Assembly (NCBI GenBank): GCA_004554165.1
Contig: SFNQ01000007.1
Coordinates: forward strand, 1,220 to 65,219
Source: Clostridiales bacterium
GTDB taxonomy: Bacteria; Bacillota; Clostridia; Christensenellales; CAG-138
Direction of reading: 5' to 3'
Length of the DNA: 64,000 bases
The notes beneath the pieces were generated by a model, which was not told the DNA's origin, did not search any database, and worked only from the letters and a program-made list of their open reading frames with translations. A program made the translations under genes and the position numbers. Shown piece after piece: positions 1-53,744 of this stretch (positions within the stretch are counted from its first letter, which is position 1; every line of letters begins with the position of its first letter).

Positions 1-1
1 T

Positions 2-355
2 TGTGCCGACAATAACCTCTGCGGAGTAGTTGTTTTCGCCGACCGACATGAGGGCTACTATGTGCCAACGGTTGGCTTGAACGAAGCAACGATCAGCAAA
101 TACATCCAGGACCAGGAACGGGATGATATAGCAGTGGACAAGTTCAGTGTGAAGGAGTACGAAGACCCGTTTACGCAAAAAGCGCCCCTTAAGGGGCGTC
201 AGAGTGTCGAAAAAGTGGCGTTCAGCCACTTTTTCGAGCTTTCACAGGTTTTGCCTCTCGCATTCGCTCCCGGGCGGAAAAACCTGCAAGGTACGAAAAC
301 CTCTGGGGTTTCATCCGTTCTGACGCACTTGTCGTCAGAGCCGGATGGAACATAA
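2..355 (+). CDS. tnpA: IS200/IS605-family Y1 transposase (TnpA), C-terminal fragment cut by the window edge; frame now reads on into an inserted repeat element
   Basis: Frame-2 translation ..GYYVPTVGLNEATISKYIQDQERDDIAVDKFSVKEYEDPF resembles the conserved C-terminus of IS200-type TnpA (GYYVxTVG..YIxxQ). There is no stop until 353-355 because of the insertion at 199. Confidence 0.6.
   Translation, partial: CADNNLCGVVVFADRHEGYYVPTVGLNEATISKYIQDQERDDIAVDKFSVKEYEDPFTQKAPLKGRQSVEKVAFSHFFELSQVLPLAFAPGRKNLQGTKTSGVSSVLTHLSSEPDGT
181..198. repeat. Left copy of an 18-bp target duplication AGCGCCCCTTAAGGGGCG (itself a palindrome)
   Basis: Identical 18-mer at 399-416, directly flanking the repeat element. 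Confidence 0.85.
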
Positions 356-398
356 GGGGCTGCGGCCCCTTATCAACCCCGGGGTTTTTCGACAATCT
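199..398 (+). mobile_element. Structured TIR element, copy 1 (MITE-like, non-coding, family unassigned)
   Basis: About 93% identical by eye to 37638-37881 outside one indel. Ends are AGAGTGTCGAAAAA / TTTTTCGACAATCT (inverted). It has five internal hairpins and is flanked by an 18-bp direct repeat. Confidence 0.8.
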
Positions 399-416
399 AG
401 CGCCCCTTAAGGGGCG
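399..416. repeat. Right copy of the 18-bp target duplication, followed by the displaced tnpA stop (C TAA at 417-420)
   Basis: Identical to 181-198. Joining 198 to 417 gives CGC TAA in the tnpA frame. Confidence 0.85.
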
Positions 417-2575: not shown

Positions 2576-5128
2576 CTATTTTTTCCTGCTGTACGGCGTG
2601 TCCGAAAGCGGCAGCTCCGTGCGGAGCTTTCCGTCGTACTGGAAGTAGGCGGCGGCGATGGCCGGGGCGGTGGGGATGGAGGTAATCTCGCCGATGCCGA
2701 TGGCGCCGTAGGCCATCCGGAAGGCAGGTTTTTCTACGATACGCGCGTCAATGACGGGAACGTTGGGCGCTTTGAACAGACCCAGCGTGCCGAACTTTGC
2801 CGTGGGGACGCAGTCGGTCAGCGGATATTGCTCCGTCAGCGCATAGCCCATGGACATGACCACGCCGCCCTCGATCTGGCCCTCCACGGAGATGGGGTTC
2901 ACCGCGCGGCCCACGTCATGCGCCGCGATGATGCGCTCGAGTTTGCCGTCCTCGCCCAGGATGGCAACCTGCGTGGCGTAGCCGTAGGCAACGTGGCTTA
3001 CGGGGTTTGGCTTGGGAGAGCCCAGCGGATCGGTCTTTGCAAAATACTCGGCGTAGAACTCCTGCCCTTCCAGCTTGGAGAGTGGCGCGTCCCCCCGCGC
3101 GTCGTTCAGCAGCAGGCAGGCGCGGCGCGCAGCCTCGCCGGTGATGAGCGTCTGGCGGGAGCCGGAGGTGGTGCCGGAGTCCGGCGCGTTGAAGGTGTTC
3201 GCCGGCTCGTAAACGATTTCGTCCCGGGACAGCCCCGTGGTCTCGCCCACGATCTGCACGAGCACGGTGCCAAGCCCCTGCCCGATGCAGGAGGCGCCAG
3301 CGAAGATATGCACCCTGCCGCCCTCCACCAGCAAGCGCACGCGGCCCTTGTCGGGAATGCCCACGCCCACGCCGGCGTTCTTCATCGCGCAGGCAAGGCC
3401 AGCGTACTTTGCGTTTTCAAAGTCCTGGCGTACGGCTTCCAGGGTCTCGACAAGCCCTGTGCTATCGTCGACAATCTGGCCGTTGGGCAGCGTCTGCCCG
3501 GGCCGGATGGCGTTGCGGTAGCGGATTTCCCAGGGGGAGATGCCGAGCTTGTGCGCCATCTGGTTTAGCAGGGTTTCGATGGCAAAGCAGGTCTGCGTTA
3601 CGCCAAAGCCGCGGAAGGCGCCTGCGGGCGGGTTGTTCGTGTAGTAGGCGTAGCCGTCGATTTCAAAATTCTCATAGTTGTAGGGCCCCGCGGCGTGCGT
3701 GCAGGCCCGCTCCAGCACCGGGCCGCCCAGAGAGGCGTAAGCGCCGGTGTCCGCGATGACCTTTGCTCTGACGCCCTGAATAATGCCCTGTTCGTCGCAG
3801 CCCAGCGTGAATTCCATCTCCATGGGGTGGCGCTTGGGGTGGACGATGAGGCTCTCCGCCCGGGTGAGCTTGACCTTGACGGGGCGCTTGGTCAGGAAGG
3901 CAATGAGCGCCGCGTGGTGCTGTACGGTCACGTCCTCCTTGCCGCCGAAGCCGCCGCCCACGAGCTTGTTCTCCACCCAGACCTTTTCCAGCGGCAGGCC
4001 GAGCACAGGCGCCGTTTCAAAGCGGGTGTCGTAGGTGCCCTGATCCGTGGAGTAGATCAGCACGCCGTCATCCTTCGGCAGCGCCACCGCGCACTCCGGC
4101 TCCAGAAAGGCGTGCTCCGTAAAGGGCGTTTTAAAGGTGCCGGATAGCACATGCGCGCTGTTTTGGATGGCGGCGTCCGCGTTGCCGCGGCTCACGTGCT
4201 TGTGGGCAAGAAGGTTGCCGCCCTTGTGCAGGCGCGGCGCGCCCTCGGCCATGGCCTCCGCCGGATTGCGCACAGGCGGCAGCACCTCGTATTCAACCTC
4301 GATGAGCGCCTTTGCCTCGGCGAGAATCTCCGGCGTTTCCGCGGCCACAAGGCAGATGGAATCGCCAAGATAGCGCGTTTCGCCGCCCACAGGGATGAAC
4401 ACGTCCCAGTCCTTGACCAGGTGCCCCACGATGTTCAGGCCCGGAATATCCTCTGCCGTGAACACGCCGACAACGCCCGGGAGCGCGCGGGCCTTTTCCG
4501 TATGGATGGCGAGCACTCTTGCGCGAGGGTACCTGCTGCGCACGGCGCTGCCGTAAATCATGCCCTCATAAGCCAGATCGTCCGGATACTCGCCGTAGCC
4601 CAGCACCTTTTCGCGCACGTCCAGCCGGTGTACCCGCGCCCCCACCTTCCAGGCGGTTTCCTCGGCGGGAACCTGGCCCTCGCGCAGCAGACGCGCGGCG
4701 ATTTTGACCGCCTCGATGATCTTCACATAGCCCGTGCAGCGGCAGATGTTGTTGCGCAGCGCATGGCGGATTTCTTCCTCCGAGGGATCGGCGTTTGTAT
4801 CCAGCAGGGCCTTGGCGGCGATCACCATGCCGGGAATGCAGAAGCCGCACTGCACGGCGCCTGCCTCGCCGAAGGCAAAGGTATAAACGTCCTTTTCAAA
4901 GTCCGAAAGCCCTTCCACGGTGAGAACGTGCCTGCCCTCCAGCTTGTCCGTTTGCTGAACGCAGGCCTTGACCGCCTTGCCGTCGATGAGCACGGTGCAG
5001 GTGCCGCAGGCGCCCTCCGAGCAGCCGTCCTTCACGGAGGTCAGGTGCAGCGTATCGCGAAGGTAGCGCATGAGGCGCTGGTTGTTTTCCACCGTAACGG
5101 CTTTGCCGTTGACAAAAAAGCTGGCCAT
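2576..5128 (-). CDS. Molybdopterin-dependent hydroxylase with N-terminal 2Fe-2S domains (XdhD / selenium-dependent molybdenum hydroxylase-like)
   Basis: 850 aa. The N-terminus has CSEGACGTCTV and CGFCIPG..CRCTGY ferredoxin motifs, followed by an aldehyde oxidase/xanthine dehydrogenase Mo-binding domain. It sits downstream of ygfK and ssnA as in E. coli. Confidence 0.9.
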   Translation of the reverse strand: MASFFVNGKAVTVENNQRLMRYLRDTLHLTSVKDGCSEGACGTCTVLIDGKAVKACVQQTDKLEGRHVLTVEGLSDFEKDVYTFAFGEAGAVQCGFCIPGMVIAAKALLDTNADPSEEEIRHALRNNICRCTGYVKIIEAVKIAARLLREGQVPAEETAWKVGARVHRLDVREKVLGYGEYPDDLAYEGMIYGSAVRSRYPRARVLAIHTEKARALPGVVGVFTAEDIPGLNIVGHLVKDWDVFIPVGGETRYLGDSICLVAAETPEILAEAKALIEVEYEVLPPVRNPAEAMAEGAPRLHKGGNLLAHKHVSRGNADAAIQNSAHVLSGTFKTPFTEHAFLEPECAVALPKDDGVLIYSTDQGTYDTRFETAPVLGLPLEKVWVENKLVGGGFGGKEDVTVQHHAALIAFLTKRPVKVKLTRAESLIVHPKRHPMEMEFTLGCDEQGIIQGVRAKVIADTGAYASLGGPVLERACTHAAGPYNYENFEIDGYAYYTNNPPAGAFRGFGVTQTCFAIETLLNQMAHKLGISPWEIRYRNAIRPGQTLPNGQIVDDSTGLVETLEAVRQDFENAKYAGLACAMKNAGVGVGIPDKGRVRLLVEGGRVHIFAGASCIGQGLGTVLVQIVGETTGLSRDEIVYEPANTFNAPDSGTTSGSRQTLITGEAARRACLLLNDARGDAPLSKLEGQEFYAEYFAKTDPLGSPKPNPVSHVAYGYATQVAILGEDGKLERIIAAHDVGRAVNPISVEGQIEGGVVMSMGYALTEQYPLTDCVPTAKFGTLGLFKAPNVPVIDARIVEKPAFRMAYGAIGIGEITSIPTAPAIAAAYFQYDGKLRTELPLSDTPYSRKK

Positions 5129-5251
5129 CCGAGTTTTTCTCCTTATTTATATGGTTCAGGTTTGCGCTTTTCAGAACGCGGAAAGAACTGCCGCGCTCTG
5201 GAAAGCGGCCGGAGGGGGGGAGGCCCCTCCGGCGCGGGGAGTTGCGGCGCG

Positions 5252-8279: not shown

Positions 8280-9605
8280 TCAGGCGTTGACGGACTGCCA
8301 GAGCGCGGCGGCGCTTTGGCGGCACTCGGCCATGAGCGCCTTTTCGTCGATGCCGGTGAGTCTGCGGTCCTTCATGAGCACCTTGCCGTTGCAGACGGTG
8401 GTGGTGACGCTGCGGCCGTTCATGCCGAAGAGGATGTGGCCGTTGACGTTGCCGCCGTCCATGGGCGTCAGCGGATCGTAGTCGGTCACGATCACGTCCG
8501 CGTAGGCGCCTTCCTTCAGGATGCCGATGGGATGGTCGAAATAGCGGGCGGCGATGGCGCGGTTGTTTTCAAACAGCATCGCCGGAATCTCGCCCCAGGC
8601 CACGGTGGGATCGCAGAGGTGGTGCTTGTGGATGATGTTGCCGACCTTGTAGCTTTCCAGCATGTCGTTGGTGTAGCCGTCCGTGCCGAGGCCCACCAGC
8701 AGACCCTCGCGCATCATGTGGATGACCGGGCCGCAGCCGACGGCGTTGCCCATATTGGATTCCGGGTTGTGGACCACGGCGGTGTCCGTATCCCGAAGGA
8801 GCTGCATTTCCGCGCGGTTGATGTGGACGCAGTGGATGGCCAGGGTGCGATCGCCGAGCACGCCGTTGTCATAAAAGCGGTGGATGATGCGCTTGCCGTG
8901 TTCGGCGAGGCAGGCCTTTACGTCCGCGGGGCCTTCGGCACAGTGAACGTGGAAGCCCGCGCCATGGCGGCGCTCGTTGCACTCGCTGAGCGTTTTGTCG
9001 GAAACCGTGAAGGAGGCGTGCAGGCCCATCATGCCCTTGAGCATGTCGCTGGTGTCCTTCTGCGTGCGGAGGATGAAGCGCTCGTTTTCCAGGATGCTCT
9101 GCACACGCTTCTGCTCGCCGTCGCGGTCGGAAACCTCATAGCAGAGCGAAGCGCGCACGCCGAGCTTTGTGGCGCCCTCCGCGATGTCGTCGAGGCTGCC
9201 GGGAATTTCAAAGTAGCTGGCGTGGTGGTCGAATACCGTGGTTACGCCGTTTTTGATGCAGTCGGCAAAGACCGCCAGAGAGGAAAGCCGGTTGTTCTCC
9301 CGGGTGAGCCTGCGGTCGATCTTCCACCACATGCCCTCAAGGATGTCGTTGAAATCCTTGGGATCATAGCCCCGGATGGATAGCCCGCGGGCAAAGGCGC
9401 TGTAGATGTGATTGTGCATGTTGATGAGACCCGGCATGATGACGCCGCCGTCCGCATCGAGAAATTCCGCGTCCGGATACGTTTCGCGGAGCGTCTTCGT
9501 CTCTCCGACCGCTTTGATGAACCTTCCGTCGATAGCGACGGCGCCGTTCTCGTAAAATTTACCTTCGTCCCTGGTGATGAGGCGTCCGTTTCCGATCAGT
9601 AGCAT
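8280..9605 (-). CDS. ssnA: SsnA-type amidohydrolase (chlorohydrolase/aminohydrolase family)
   Basis: 441 aa, ..VIMPGLINMHNHIYSAFARG..WWKIDRRL..VFDHHAS.. parallels E. coli SsnA. Located immediately upstream of ygfK. Confidence 0.9.
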   Translation of the reverse strand: MLLIGNGRLITRDEGKFYENGAVAIDGRFIKAVGETKTLRETYPDAEFLDADGGVIMPGLINMHNHIYSAFARGLSIRGYDPKDFNDILEGMWWKIDRRLTRENNRLSSLAVFADCIKNGVTTVFDHHASYFEIPGSLDDIAEGATKLGVRASLCYEVSDRDGEQKRVQSILENERFILRTQKDTSDMLKGMMGLHASFTVSDKTLSECNERRHGAGFHVHCAEGPADVKACLAEHGKRIIHRFYDNGVLGDRTLAIHCVHINRAEMQLLRDTDTAVVHNPESNMGNAVGCGPVIHMMREGLLVGLGTDGYTNDMLESYKVGNIIHKHHLCDPTVAWGEIPAMLFENNRAIAARYFDHPIGILKEGAYADVIVTDYDPLTPMDGGNVNGHILFGMNGRSVTTTVCNGKVLMKDRRLTGIDEKALMAECRQSAAALWQSVNA

Positions 9606-37141: not shown

Positions 37142-37333
37142 ATGGCACGAAACGGCGCATTGGTTCCTGAAGCGAAGTCCAAGATGAACAGTCTGAAGAC
37201 CGAGGTTGCGAACTCTCTGAACGTCAACCTGCAGCAGGGCTACAATGGCAGCCTGACCTCGCGTGAGGCGGGTTCCATCGGTGGCGAAATGGTGAAGCGC
37301 ATGATCGCTTACGCGGAAAACAACATGAACTAA
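37142..37333 (+). CDS. Small acid-soluble spore protein, alpha/beta type
   Basis: 63 aa, ..LVPEAKSKMNSLKTEVANSLNV..SREAGSIGGEMVKRMI.. is the SASP signature. AAGGAGG is the RBS. Confidence 0.9.
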   Translation: MARNGALVPEAKSKMNSLKTEVANSLNVNLQQGYNGSLTSREAGSIGGEMVKRMIAYAENNMN

Positions 37334-37403: not shown

Positions 37404-37595
37404 ATGGCCAGAAACGGAGCACTGGTTCCTGAAGCGAAGTCCAAGATGGACAGCCTCAAGACCGAGGTTGCGAACTCTCTGAACGTTAACCTCAAGCAGG
37501 GCTACAACGGCGACCTGACCTCGCGCGAAGCGGGTTCTGTCGGCGGCGAGATGGTGAAGCGCATGATCGCTTATGCGCAGACCAACATGAAATAA
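37404..37595 (+). CDS. Small acid-soluble spore protein, alpha/beta type (tandem paralogue)
   Basis: 63 aa, near-identical to the upstream copy. Confidence 0.9.
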   Translation: MARNGALVPEAKSKMDSLKTEVANSLNVNLKQGYNGDLTSREAGSVGGEMVKRMIAYAQTNMK

Positions 37596-37612
37596 ACAGT
37601 ACGACGATATAC

Positions 37613-37637
37613 GGGGCCGGCGCTCATGCGCCGGCCT
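37613..37637. repeat. Left copy of a 25-bp target duplication GGGGCCGGCGCTCATGCGCCGGCCT (contains a 9-bp-stem hairpin)
   Basis: Identical 25-mer at 37882-37906. Lies 18 nt after the SASP stop. Confidence 0.85.
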
Positions 37638-37881
37638 CAGAGTGTCGAAAAAGTGGCTGAACGCCACTTTTTCGAGCTTTCACAGGTTTTGCCTCTCCCA
37701 TTGTCTCCCGGGCGGCAAAACCCGCAAAGTACGAAAACCTCCGGGTTTTCATCCGTTCTGACGCACACCCCCCAGGGGGCCTTCTCTTGCCCCTGCGGGG
37801 CAATTCACCTTGTGTCGTCAGAGCCGGATGGAACATAAGGGGCTGCGGCCCATTATCAACCCCGGGGTTTTTCGACAGGCT
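37638..37881 (+). mobile_element. Structured TIR element, copy 2 (with a ~45-nt expansion in one hairpin loop)
   Basis: Collinear with 200-398. Same termini (CAGAGTGTCGAAAAA / TTTTTCGACAGGCT). Flanked by a 25-bp direct repeat. Confidence 0.8.
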
Positions 37882-37906
37882 GGGGCCGGCGCTCATGCGC
37901 CGGCCT
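37882..37906. repeat. Right copy of the 25-bp target duplication
   Basis: Identical to 37613-37637. Confidence 0.85.
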
Positions 37907-38127
37907 GCTGCATGCCGAAACAGGGGCCTGGCGGCGCCTGCTCCGCTCACTCCGGATTTTGCGGCGCCGGTTTCCGGTGGGCAGGGGCAGCCGGGAAGGG
38001 AAGCAGACGTCTTGCCGGCGTTTCAGCGGCGCGGCGGCTCCGAGTCTGCAAGCCTGCGGACGGAATTGCCGCCCACAAAGGGCGCGGTGGAAACCACGAA
38101 GCCGGATCCCGTCCGGCGCAAAGGGTC

Positions 38128-53401: not shown

Positions 53402-53548
53402 GTCTGTCCGGCGGCCGCAGCCTTTCGGCGGGCGGCGTCCCGGGTCTGACGGTATGGGCGGCAGAAGGGCCGCCCCCTCGAATTTTGCGCCCTGTGGTTT
53501 GTGATGCTGCCCGGGGTTAAAGCCCGCAGGACGGCAGGGAACAGAGCC

Positions 53549-53744
53549 GGGAGCTCGAAAAAACCTGGATTGTCAAGGGCCGCAGCCCCGGACCTTCCAT
53601 CCGCCGCTGGGGGCCTGTACGTCAGAAGGGATGATCCCCCTCGGGGGGTTCCCTTTTTCCGGTTTTGCCGCCATGAAACGTGCAGGGATTTTGGGCAAAA
53701 GCTGGTCTTTCAAAAAAGTCCGTCCGGACTCTTTTGACAGGCTG
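53549..53744 (-). mobile_element. Structured TIR element, copy 3 (diverged, inverted orientation)
   Basis: Collinear blocks match the reverse complement of copies 1/2: TCGAAAAA, GGGCCGCAGCCCC, TTCCATCCG, GTCAGAAnGGATGA, GGTTTTGCCGCC, GGCAAAA, AAAAAGT..ACT.TTT.GACA. Two hairpins are kept by compensatory changes. Confidence 0.6.

Follow-up and report, generated by a model that had tools for sequence, protein, structure and literature searches.

MITE-like elements of gut Clostridia that probably integrate at the feet of hairpins and duplicate them

Just 3' of two tandem SASP genes of a Clostridiales bacterium (assembly GCA_004554165.1, contig SFNQ01000007.1, positions 1,220 to 65,219; this whole 64,000-nt stretch is referred to below as the window) lies a 244-bp non-coding element with inverted ends, here called copy B, which is a non-autonomous DNA transposon resembling a MITE (miniature inverted-repeat transposable element). 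It is part of a large superfamily in Oscillospiraceae-like gut Clostridia, and empty sites in sister strains, duplications that follow the size of the target hairpin, and a conserved set of termini, among other evidence, make it probable that these are mobile elements that integrate at hairpin feet. As such, the element is a new, widespread, non-autonomous case of a rare insertion mode that has already been described. The starting point was a first-pass annotation of the window, which had proposed from the letters alone that copy B was inserted into, and had duplicated, a hairpin.

An insertion polymorphism at the SASP locus

Copy B runs from CAGAGTGTCGAAAAA to TTTTTCGACAGGCT and is bracketed by two copies of the 25-nt sequence GGGGCCGGCGCTCATGCGCCGGCCT, which are 100% identical (Table 1). 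Each copy is a hairpin with GC stem arms GGCCGGCGC and GCGCCGGCC, 9 bp long and joined by a 4-nt loop, and the left one starts 18 nt beyond the TAA of the second SASP gene (37593–37595); element, repeats, and hairpin are all present where the first-pass annotation had placed them. The family mostly ends in ...CTG, and G is the first base of the repeat at 37882, which allows two readings: a 24-bp duplication with a 245-bp element, or a 25-bp duplication with a 244-bp element. Chance would give 0.01 occurrences of the 20-nt left terminus in the window, which contains two.

Sister strains had been suggested as a place to look for empty sites with a single hairpin, and such sites are common. Ten contigs were gathered from public assemblies via an exact match to the SASP protein, and eight of them (L002–L006 and L008–L010; L numbers denote the loci collected here) carry an empty allele in which one hairpin is followed directly by GCTGCATGCC, the sequence being exactly that of the window minus the element and one repeat. 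The other two (L001 and L007) are filled, with two hairpin copies enclosing a 243-bp form of the element. An exact empty site with one hairpin establishes copy B as a genuine insertion, and the SASP insertion site is polymorphic within the species.

These alleles also bear on a different origin of the flanking repeats, in which insertion did not make them and an unrelated fragment was instead trapped by a tandem hairpin already in place, or while the host repaired a broken cruciform. The fragility of palindromes, which host nucleases can cleave, lends the idea some substance; however, orthologous loci lacking the element carry one hairpin and not the two in tandem that such a history would leave, and at dozens of different hairpins, in several genera, the inserted DNA is always of this one family and has the same termini. 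The data already largely refute capture, which we consider extremely improbable.

The window flanks are 99.5–99.6% identical to the empty alleles L002 and L005, and the filled alleles L001 and L007 are only ~96.8% identical to the window in the right flank and 96.7–97.1% in the element. Because a rare variant bearing an optional module (described below) is common to the filled alleles, it is somewhat more economical to assume one old insertion at the SASP site than two separate ones, with recombination, possibly involving the 25-bp repeats, having spread or removed it.

Three further observations concern the surroundings of copy B. The two SASP genes (37143–37333 and 37404–37595) have 63 codons each and are closely similar, their 3' ends being 86% identical over 36 nt. 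The GC-rich spacer just 3' of the right hairpin gives a weak sub-threshold match at 37901–37986 to the Rfam M23 RNA (24.3 bits versus a gathering score of 41.2, E = 0.019) that is probably noise. In L001, a gene caller placed a 201-aa open reading frame (ORF) at 3223–3828, spanning the element and without a Pfam hit, an instance of the spurious protein predictions to which the element gives rise.

Table 1 Features of the element copies in the window
Feature	Position	Strand	Remark
Left copy of duplicated target hairpin (copy B)	37613..37637	+	9-bp GC stem, loop TCAT
Element copy B	37638..37881	+	244 bp, non-coding, variant with optional 45-bp module
Left terminal inverted repeat CAGAGTGTCGAAAAAGTGGC	37638..37657	+	conserved across subfamilies, in genome and metagenome loci
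H1, first hairpin	37645..37675	+	inner left repeat, 5-nt loop, inner copy of right repeat; 99.3% paired
H2 hairpin	37685..37722	+	compensatory changes in 8 of 11 pairs
H3 hairpin (GAAAACC/GGTTTTC)	37734..37749	+	from alignment of copies
H4 hairpin GTTCTGACGCAC…GTCGTCAGAGC	37755..37824	+	apex GCACATGTC in module-free copies
Optional 45-bp module	37768..37812	+	centre of H4; absent in copy A, either orientation elsewhere
H5 hairpin	37835..37856	+	AAGGGGC…GCCCATT here; most other copies have GCCCCTT
Right terminal inverted repeat TTTTTCGACAGGCT	37867..37881	+	plus G if the element ends in ...CTG
Right copy of duplicated target hairpin (copy B)	37882..37906	+	identical to left copy
Left 18-bp duplicated hairpin of copy A	181..198	+	encodes last codons of IS200-type tnpA
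Element copy A	200..398	+	199 bp, without 45-bp module
Right 18-bp duplicated hairpin of copy A	399..416	+	same sequence as left copy
Old diverged copy C	53545..53744	-	hairpins kept via compensatory changes

The duplication follows the target hairpin

To measure how the duplication relates to its target, the empty site was rebuilt and its best palindrome located for each of 25 distinct copies whose flanking repeats are perfect; several genera and sequence subfamilies are represented among them. Duplications were 18–37 bp long (median 27), and a palindrome lay at their centre in every case. Their ends fell no more than 3 nt from the outer stem ends, or stem feet, in 22 copies, and the left and right offsets differed by at most 2 nt, that is, the duplication was symmetric about the dyad, in 21. 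Duplication length rose with palindrome span (Pearson 0.71; Spearman 0.79, p = 3e-6), a relationship that had been proposed from two copies in the window and that extends to the family. A duplication that is centred and symmetric and takes its length from the palindrome supports integration directed by a hairpin or cruciform without a fixed stagger, as had been suggested at the outset.

A wider sample of 87 distinct complete copies was scored for the similarity between left and right flanks, with flanks paired from different elements serving as the null. Similarity exceeded the 99th percentile of the mismatched pairs in 46 copies, and 38 attained a score of at least 18, which was never reached in the null. 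The 40 nt to the left of the element had a median folding energy of −21.4 kcal/mol versus −7.4 kcal/mol for shuffled sequence. The targets are GC-rich perfect palindromes of varied sequence, mostly hairpins just 3' of genes, and many have an A-tract upstream and a T-tract downstream, like bidirectional terminators; the orientation of the element relative to these tracts showed no significant bias (p = 0.2), and a test based on ORFs was uninformative in this high-GC DNA. At two loci (L049, 3127–3395; L060, 1600–1940) the arrangement is hairpin-element-hairpin-element-hairpin, with three copies of the same hairpin, which suggests repeated insertion at a duplicated target.

Unusually long target duplications are also made by the insertion sequences (ISs) of the IS1202 group and by IS1634/IS1549, and the first-pass annotation had mentioned the IS1202 and IS1634 types while drawing no connection to either. 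The comparison does not carry over, as IS1202 subgroups make duplications of fixed classes (5–6, 15–17, and 27–28 bp) and IS1634-type duplications are not hairpins, whereas the lengths here form a continuum between 18 and 37 bp that follows the palindrome span; we therefore rejected assignment to the IS1202 group.

Another parallel in outcome is offered by Cas1-like integrases of the casposon or CRISPR-adaptation type, and the repeats might in principle be the work of such an enzyme or of another non-DDE enzyme that makes long staggered cuts. During spacer integration, Cas1-Cas2 attacks opposite strands at both ends of the usually palindromic, 23–47-bp CRISPR repeat and thereby duplicates it, and the hairpin duplications described here resemble this size range. 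The enzyme, leader context, and repeat are, however, specific to CRISPR arrays; neither cas1 or other cas genes nor any other recurrent gene were seen near the copies, the duplications of casposons are fixed at ~14–15 bp whereas those here vary continuously with hairpin size, and inverted repeats such as those at the ends of the element are a typical trait of DDE elements. We regard a Cas1-like or comparable non-DDE origin as highly improbable.

Five hairpins, probably at the level of DNA

Structurally, the conserved body of ~200 bp comprises five hairpins (Table 1), with 96.6% of cells paired in an alignment of 52 copies and with changes on both sides in 22 of 50 pairs, compared with 8.2 ± 1.6 for column shuffles and 7–11 for slid partners. 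The first hairpin (H1) is near-invariant across genera, and between copies A and B its 13-bp stem is identical while its loop is reverse-complemented (GTTCA in copy A, with the hairpin at 207–237; TGAAC in copy B). The optional 45-bp module sits exactly in the middle of a CTGACG…CGTCAG palindrome and is found in both orientations among copies, and a motif near GCACATGTC occupies the apex of the fourth hairpin in every subfamily (~316–324 in copy A), though the surrounding stem sequences differ.

The module itself carries …CTTCTCTTGCC…CAATTCACC… and occurs in copy B as well as in L023, L096, L093, and L001. A related module with compensatory changes is present in L111 (401–467) and L112 (401–467), human faecal contigs deposited as 'Bacteriophage sp.', where it belongs to a differently built post-terminator element.

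Such features could also be sought in a structured non-coding RNA, or in a regulatory element associated with 3' untranslated regions or terminators, for which repetition would be secondary. In favor of an RNA, the fold is very stable (z ~−10), all five helices have covariation support, the architecture is kept across divergent subfamilies, and the element always lies just 3' of genes. That stability, however, is the same on either strand, the plus strand having no advantage in RNA folding energy and the opposite strand folding equally well or better, and both the loops and the 45-bp module are found flipped; together these point to DNA-level palindromes and not to a strand-specific RNA. Also against an RNA are the undetected orientation bias relative to the A/T tracts and the Rfam search that had been proposed, which gave no match at gathering score in the whole window and only sub-threshold noise at E <= 10 on 37500–38000. 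Simple scans of the element called no plus-strand promoter and no terminator, and returned a single weak (9/12) promoter-like match on the minus strand (37859–37832). Finally, presence/absence polymorphism with target duplication is the mark of mobile DNA. An RNA as the primary nature of the element is very improbable, and a secondary RNA-level effect, for example on mRNA 3'-end stability, may exist.

A superfamily with shared termini

More than 200 related loci came from a search for the first-hairpin pattern in one genome per species (at least 100 stretches) and a scan of metagenomes, mostly human gut assemblies (at least 120 stretches), these numbers being lower bounds. Hosts among the matches listed include Clostridiales and Clostridia metagenome-assembled genomes (MAGs), Intestinimonas butyriciproducens, a "Christensenella sp." MAG, Ruminococcaceae bacterium AM07-15, and uncultured Oscillospiraceae, and single MAGs such as SFCQ01 hold dozens of copies.

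The termini of the superfamily are 5'-CAGNNTGTCGAAAAAGTGGC … TTTTTCGACANNCTG-3'; the inverted repeats at the ends are ~16–20 bp long, and the outermost bases are 5'-CAG … CTG-3'. Across subfamilies, the left terminus CAGNNTGTCGAAAAA(GTGGC) and the right terminus TTTTTCGACANNCTG are kept; all have a first hairpin of the form TGTCGAAAAAGTGGC-loop-GCCACTTTTTCGA, with a loop of 3–5 nt, and a right end of the form …TTTTT(C)GACA(A/G)(G/A)CTG. About 65 complete elements of the subfamily to which copy B belongs were delimited among the matches listed, with the left end abutting a hairpin, and are mostly 198–200 bp and in some cases 242–248 bp long. Other subfamilies have quite different internal sequences, flanked by hairpin duplications likewise, and an overall size of 182–218 bp; the metagenome scan, which was meant to exclude hairpins with 5-nt loops, mostly returned further subfamilies with loops of 3–4 nt. 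Taken as candidate MITEs, the elements are 182–249 bp long, lack coding capacity apart from spurious overlapping ORFs, have terminal inverted repeats, target-site duplications, and empty sites, and are present in multiple copies per genome.

At the lower end of the size range are minimal copies of ~45 bp, reduced to the left repeat, a loop, and the right repeat (L034, 24–58; L189, 2811–2849; L192, ~2006–2045), together with a palindrome of the same kind in L172 (~5199–5240). Some of these minimal palindromes sit between two different hairpins, and one recurs in ~10 metagenome samples at a single locus, where a peptidase gene and a TetR-type gene flank it.

Variants of the first hairpin in which the inner stem GTCC/GGAC replaces GTGGC/GCCAC were seen in L175 (~9236–9273), L219 (~3314–3351), L201, L216, and the window itself (53700–53744, minus strand), so the arms of this hairpin co-vary between lineages. 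Numerous metagenome contigs end in the left repeat or a few nucleotides past it (L113, L120, L126, L132, L156 at both ends, L157, L168, and L197; L239–L243), from which it follows that the family breaks short-read assemblies. L133 and L171 were considered as the end of an IS with a ribosome-binding site and start codon, but the ORF has just 10 codons, and they represent another non-coding body type.

Comparison with known mobile elements

Classical bacterial MITEs make short and fixed duplications, such as TA or 2–9 bp. Correia, RUP, BOX, ERIC, Chunjie, and other such elements resemble the one described here in being small, non-coding, multi-copy, and intergenic, with terminal inverted repeats and stable folds, and a 2024 review of MITEs describes none that duplicates a hairpin (PMC10969869).

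The nearest behavioral precedent lies in mycoplasmas. For IS1630, an IS30-type element of Mycoplasma fermentans, one account gives variable duplications of 19–26 bp (PMC2853133); in strain M64 they are 16–26 bp (PMC3317919), and ISMhom-1 of M. hominis, from the IS30 family, behaves like IS1630 (PMC7648426). Both ISs, like the element here, insert at and duplicate inverted repeats or terminator hairpins of varied sequence and have long, variable flanking repeats as well as terminal inverted repeats, which measure 27 bp in the two ISs. They differ in being autonomous elements of ~1.3–1.4 kb that encode an IS30-type transposase and reside in Mollicutes, whereas the present element is ~200 bp, non-coding, and found in Clostridia, makes duplications of up to 37 bp, and has no IS30-type gene in the collected loci.

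IS1272/TnSha1 (IS1182 family, staphylococci) likewise targets hairpins, including terminators, with no primary-sequence consensus, which has been taken as structure-dependent capture. It deletes or replaces the stem-loop without target duplication, whereas hairpins here are duplicated and not deleted, and we accordingly rejected an IS1272-type reading. The published model for IS1272 nevertheless includes a pathway that duplicates the entire stem-loop, and attack at the 5' feet of a cruciform corresponds to pathway b in Fig. 13 of that structure-dependent transposition model (PMC5678879). The novelty claimed in the first-pass annotation therefore survives in part: the family matches nothing in Rfam, but IS1630, ISMhom-1, and this model form a direct published precedent that it had not named.

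Other copies in the window and an IS200-type neighbor

The window carries three copies of the element. Copies A and B are ~93% identical, leaving aside the 45-bp indel, and copy A, found in all ten sister contigs examined, is flanked by two copies of AGCGCCCCTTAAGGGGCG, confirming the second young copy with an 18-bp hairpin duplication that had been reported. Around copy C, no flanking duplication was recognisable.

The first letters of the window (1–202) belong to the 3' end of a tnpA gene of the IS200/IS605 family (Y1_Tnp), and copy A is inserted in the 3'-terminal hairpin of this gene. Of the sister contigs, L234 (3647–4147, minus strand) and L237 have an intact tnpA (166 aa), L235, L236, and L239 a frameshifted one, and L238, like the window, a truncated one. 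The CAG at the start of the element, where L234 has a TAG stop, lets the tnpA ORF of the window run on to position 355.

The presence of a Y1 transposase gene raises the question of whether the element is a REP/BIME- or REPIN-like extragenic palindromic sequence that owes its spread to an HUH/Y1 transposase (RAYT- or IS200-type), encoded in single copy and working on hairpins of single-stranded DNA. Like REPs, which are GC-rich palindromic repeats at gene 3' ends, the elements are extragenic, built of hairpins, and diversified by lineage; copy A lies directly 3' of tnpA, and the near-invariant first hairpin across genera would suit the binding site of a conserved protein. REPs, however, flank a RAYT gene and have neither terminal inverted repeats nor target duplications, which Y1 transposition does not yield and which are both present here. 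The adjacent gene, moreover, scores 131 bits as IS200 but just 29–31 bits on the RAYT model (cut-off 80), adjoins the element at a single locus in 1.7 Mb of related loci, and shares no common sequence between its flanks and the element. With the gene frameshifted or truncated in several strains as well, we rejected both a REP/RAYT reading and the IS200-type tnpA as mobilising enzyme, the latter being unlikely and a REP-like origin as a whole very improbable. Derivatives of IS200/IS605 (PATE) have subterminal hairpins and no terminal repeats and insert 3' of a short motif without duplication, and were likewise rejected in view of the terminal repeats and long duplications found here. On the simplest reading, the tnpA hairpin, probably the IS200 right-end hairpin, is merely another target.

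Mechanism and the mobilising enzyme

Mechanistically, we posit that a transposase provided in trans would bind the terminal repeats and capture the target as an extruded hairpin or cruciform, after which both 3' ends of the element would be joined at the stem-loops' two 5' feet, on opposite strands. Reabsorption of the cruciform would leave the joints one palindrome length apart, and gap repair would then duplicate the whole hairpin, giving 18–37 bp according to hairpin size. Attacks spaced 18–37 bp apart on plain duplex would hit changing helix faces, which an enzyme of a single, fixed geometry could hardly accommodate; if a hairpin or cruciform is extruded, both positions would be neighbors at its base. 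Both hairpin copies would stay valid targets, which would explain the tandem arrays of elements and hairpins. By analogy, the combination of terminal repeats and duplication points to a DDE-type transposase acting in trans, most likely one that behaves like that of IS1630 (IS30 family). That a DDE transposase acts on a cruciform seems to us slightly better than an even chance, and membership of the element in the IS30 family is a tentative suggestion about which we are doubtful.

Searches for the enzyme covered the collected loci and several sequence collections. Among the loci there was no recurrent ORF, no left repeat without its hairpin partner, and, within 1.72 Mb, no pair of left and right ends that is spaced by 450–4000 bp and flanked by a duplication; the ORFs that lie between distant pairs of ends were ordinary genes, such as those for a transporter, a kinase, and a membrane protein. 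Upstream of lone right-end matches, no transposase was seen in the immediate context inspected. A plasmid collection queried with the element and with a consensus 43-nt mini-element returned chance matches only, two scans of viral contigs gave nothing or chance coding matches, and the sole match in a phage collection was to the 45-bp module region, in unannotated faecal contigs. The terminus strings, sought in the full text of papers, led to no relevant paper.

Several points weigh against integration by a trans-acting DDE transposase at hairpin feet. Neither the window, where the first-pass annotation had already noted none, nor the 1.72 Mb of related loci yielded an autonomous element or a transposase with matching ends, and the longer, transposase-bearing element with the same termini that it had proposed to look for did not appear; nor did a tblastn search with the E. 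coli IS30 InsI match any of the collected loci. The class of the enzyme is deduced solely from terminal repeats combined with duplication, and cruciform extrusion and the strand-transfer positions are postulated from sequence. About half of the complete copies have no recognisable duplication, so that a tabulation of flanks bears out the duplication for the 46 copies above the null, with 25 perfect hairpin duplications, and leaves the remainder without it; in L019, L052, and L189 the two sides carry different hairpins. Where the duplication is missing, the flanks have presumably decayed or been rearranged, and decay, recombination between copies, or the right-end definition used could explain it. 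Lastly, a five-hairpin body and a fourth-hairpin apex GCACATGTC kept across subfamilies are not needed by a passive non-autonomous element and are unaccounted for by the model.

We also weighed a stronger version, which we think unlikely. In it, the ~200-bp elements would be a self-standing class and not decayed IS remnants: a conserved DNA module built of five hairpins and mobilised in trans by an enzyme so far unrecognised and perhaps fixed in the chromosome. This enzyme would read DNA shape, in the form of cruciforms extruded at gene ends, rather than sequence, with the body being part of the machinery or of benefit to the host at gene 3' ends. If true, this would be the first structure-targeting non-autonomous family and a natural system that inserts DNA at any hairpin.

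Implications for gut Clostridia

Mobile, non-autonomous elements integrating at hairpin feet would add to an insertion mode, structure-directed transposition that duplicates a whole hairpin, which has been documented for only a handful of mycoplasma ISs and whose mechanism has never been worked out. The superfamily provides natural material in abundance, namely hundreds of copies, hairpins of many sizes, and both empty and filled alleles in sister strains, from which the rule of cutting at stem feet can be read directly. Points of interest are the missing enzyme, the conserved five-hairpin body, and the near-invariance of the first hairpin across genera; if the enzyme were found, it could serve as a tool for inserting DNA at chosen palindromes. 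For annotation, this is a family without a model, absent from Rfam, over which spurious ORFs are called. For the organisms themselves, many genes of common gut Clostridia have such an element at their 3' end, where it doubles the hairpin and may thereby affect termination and mRNA stability.

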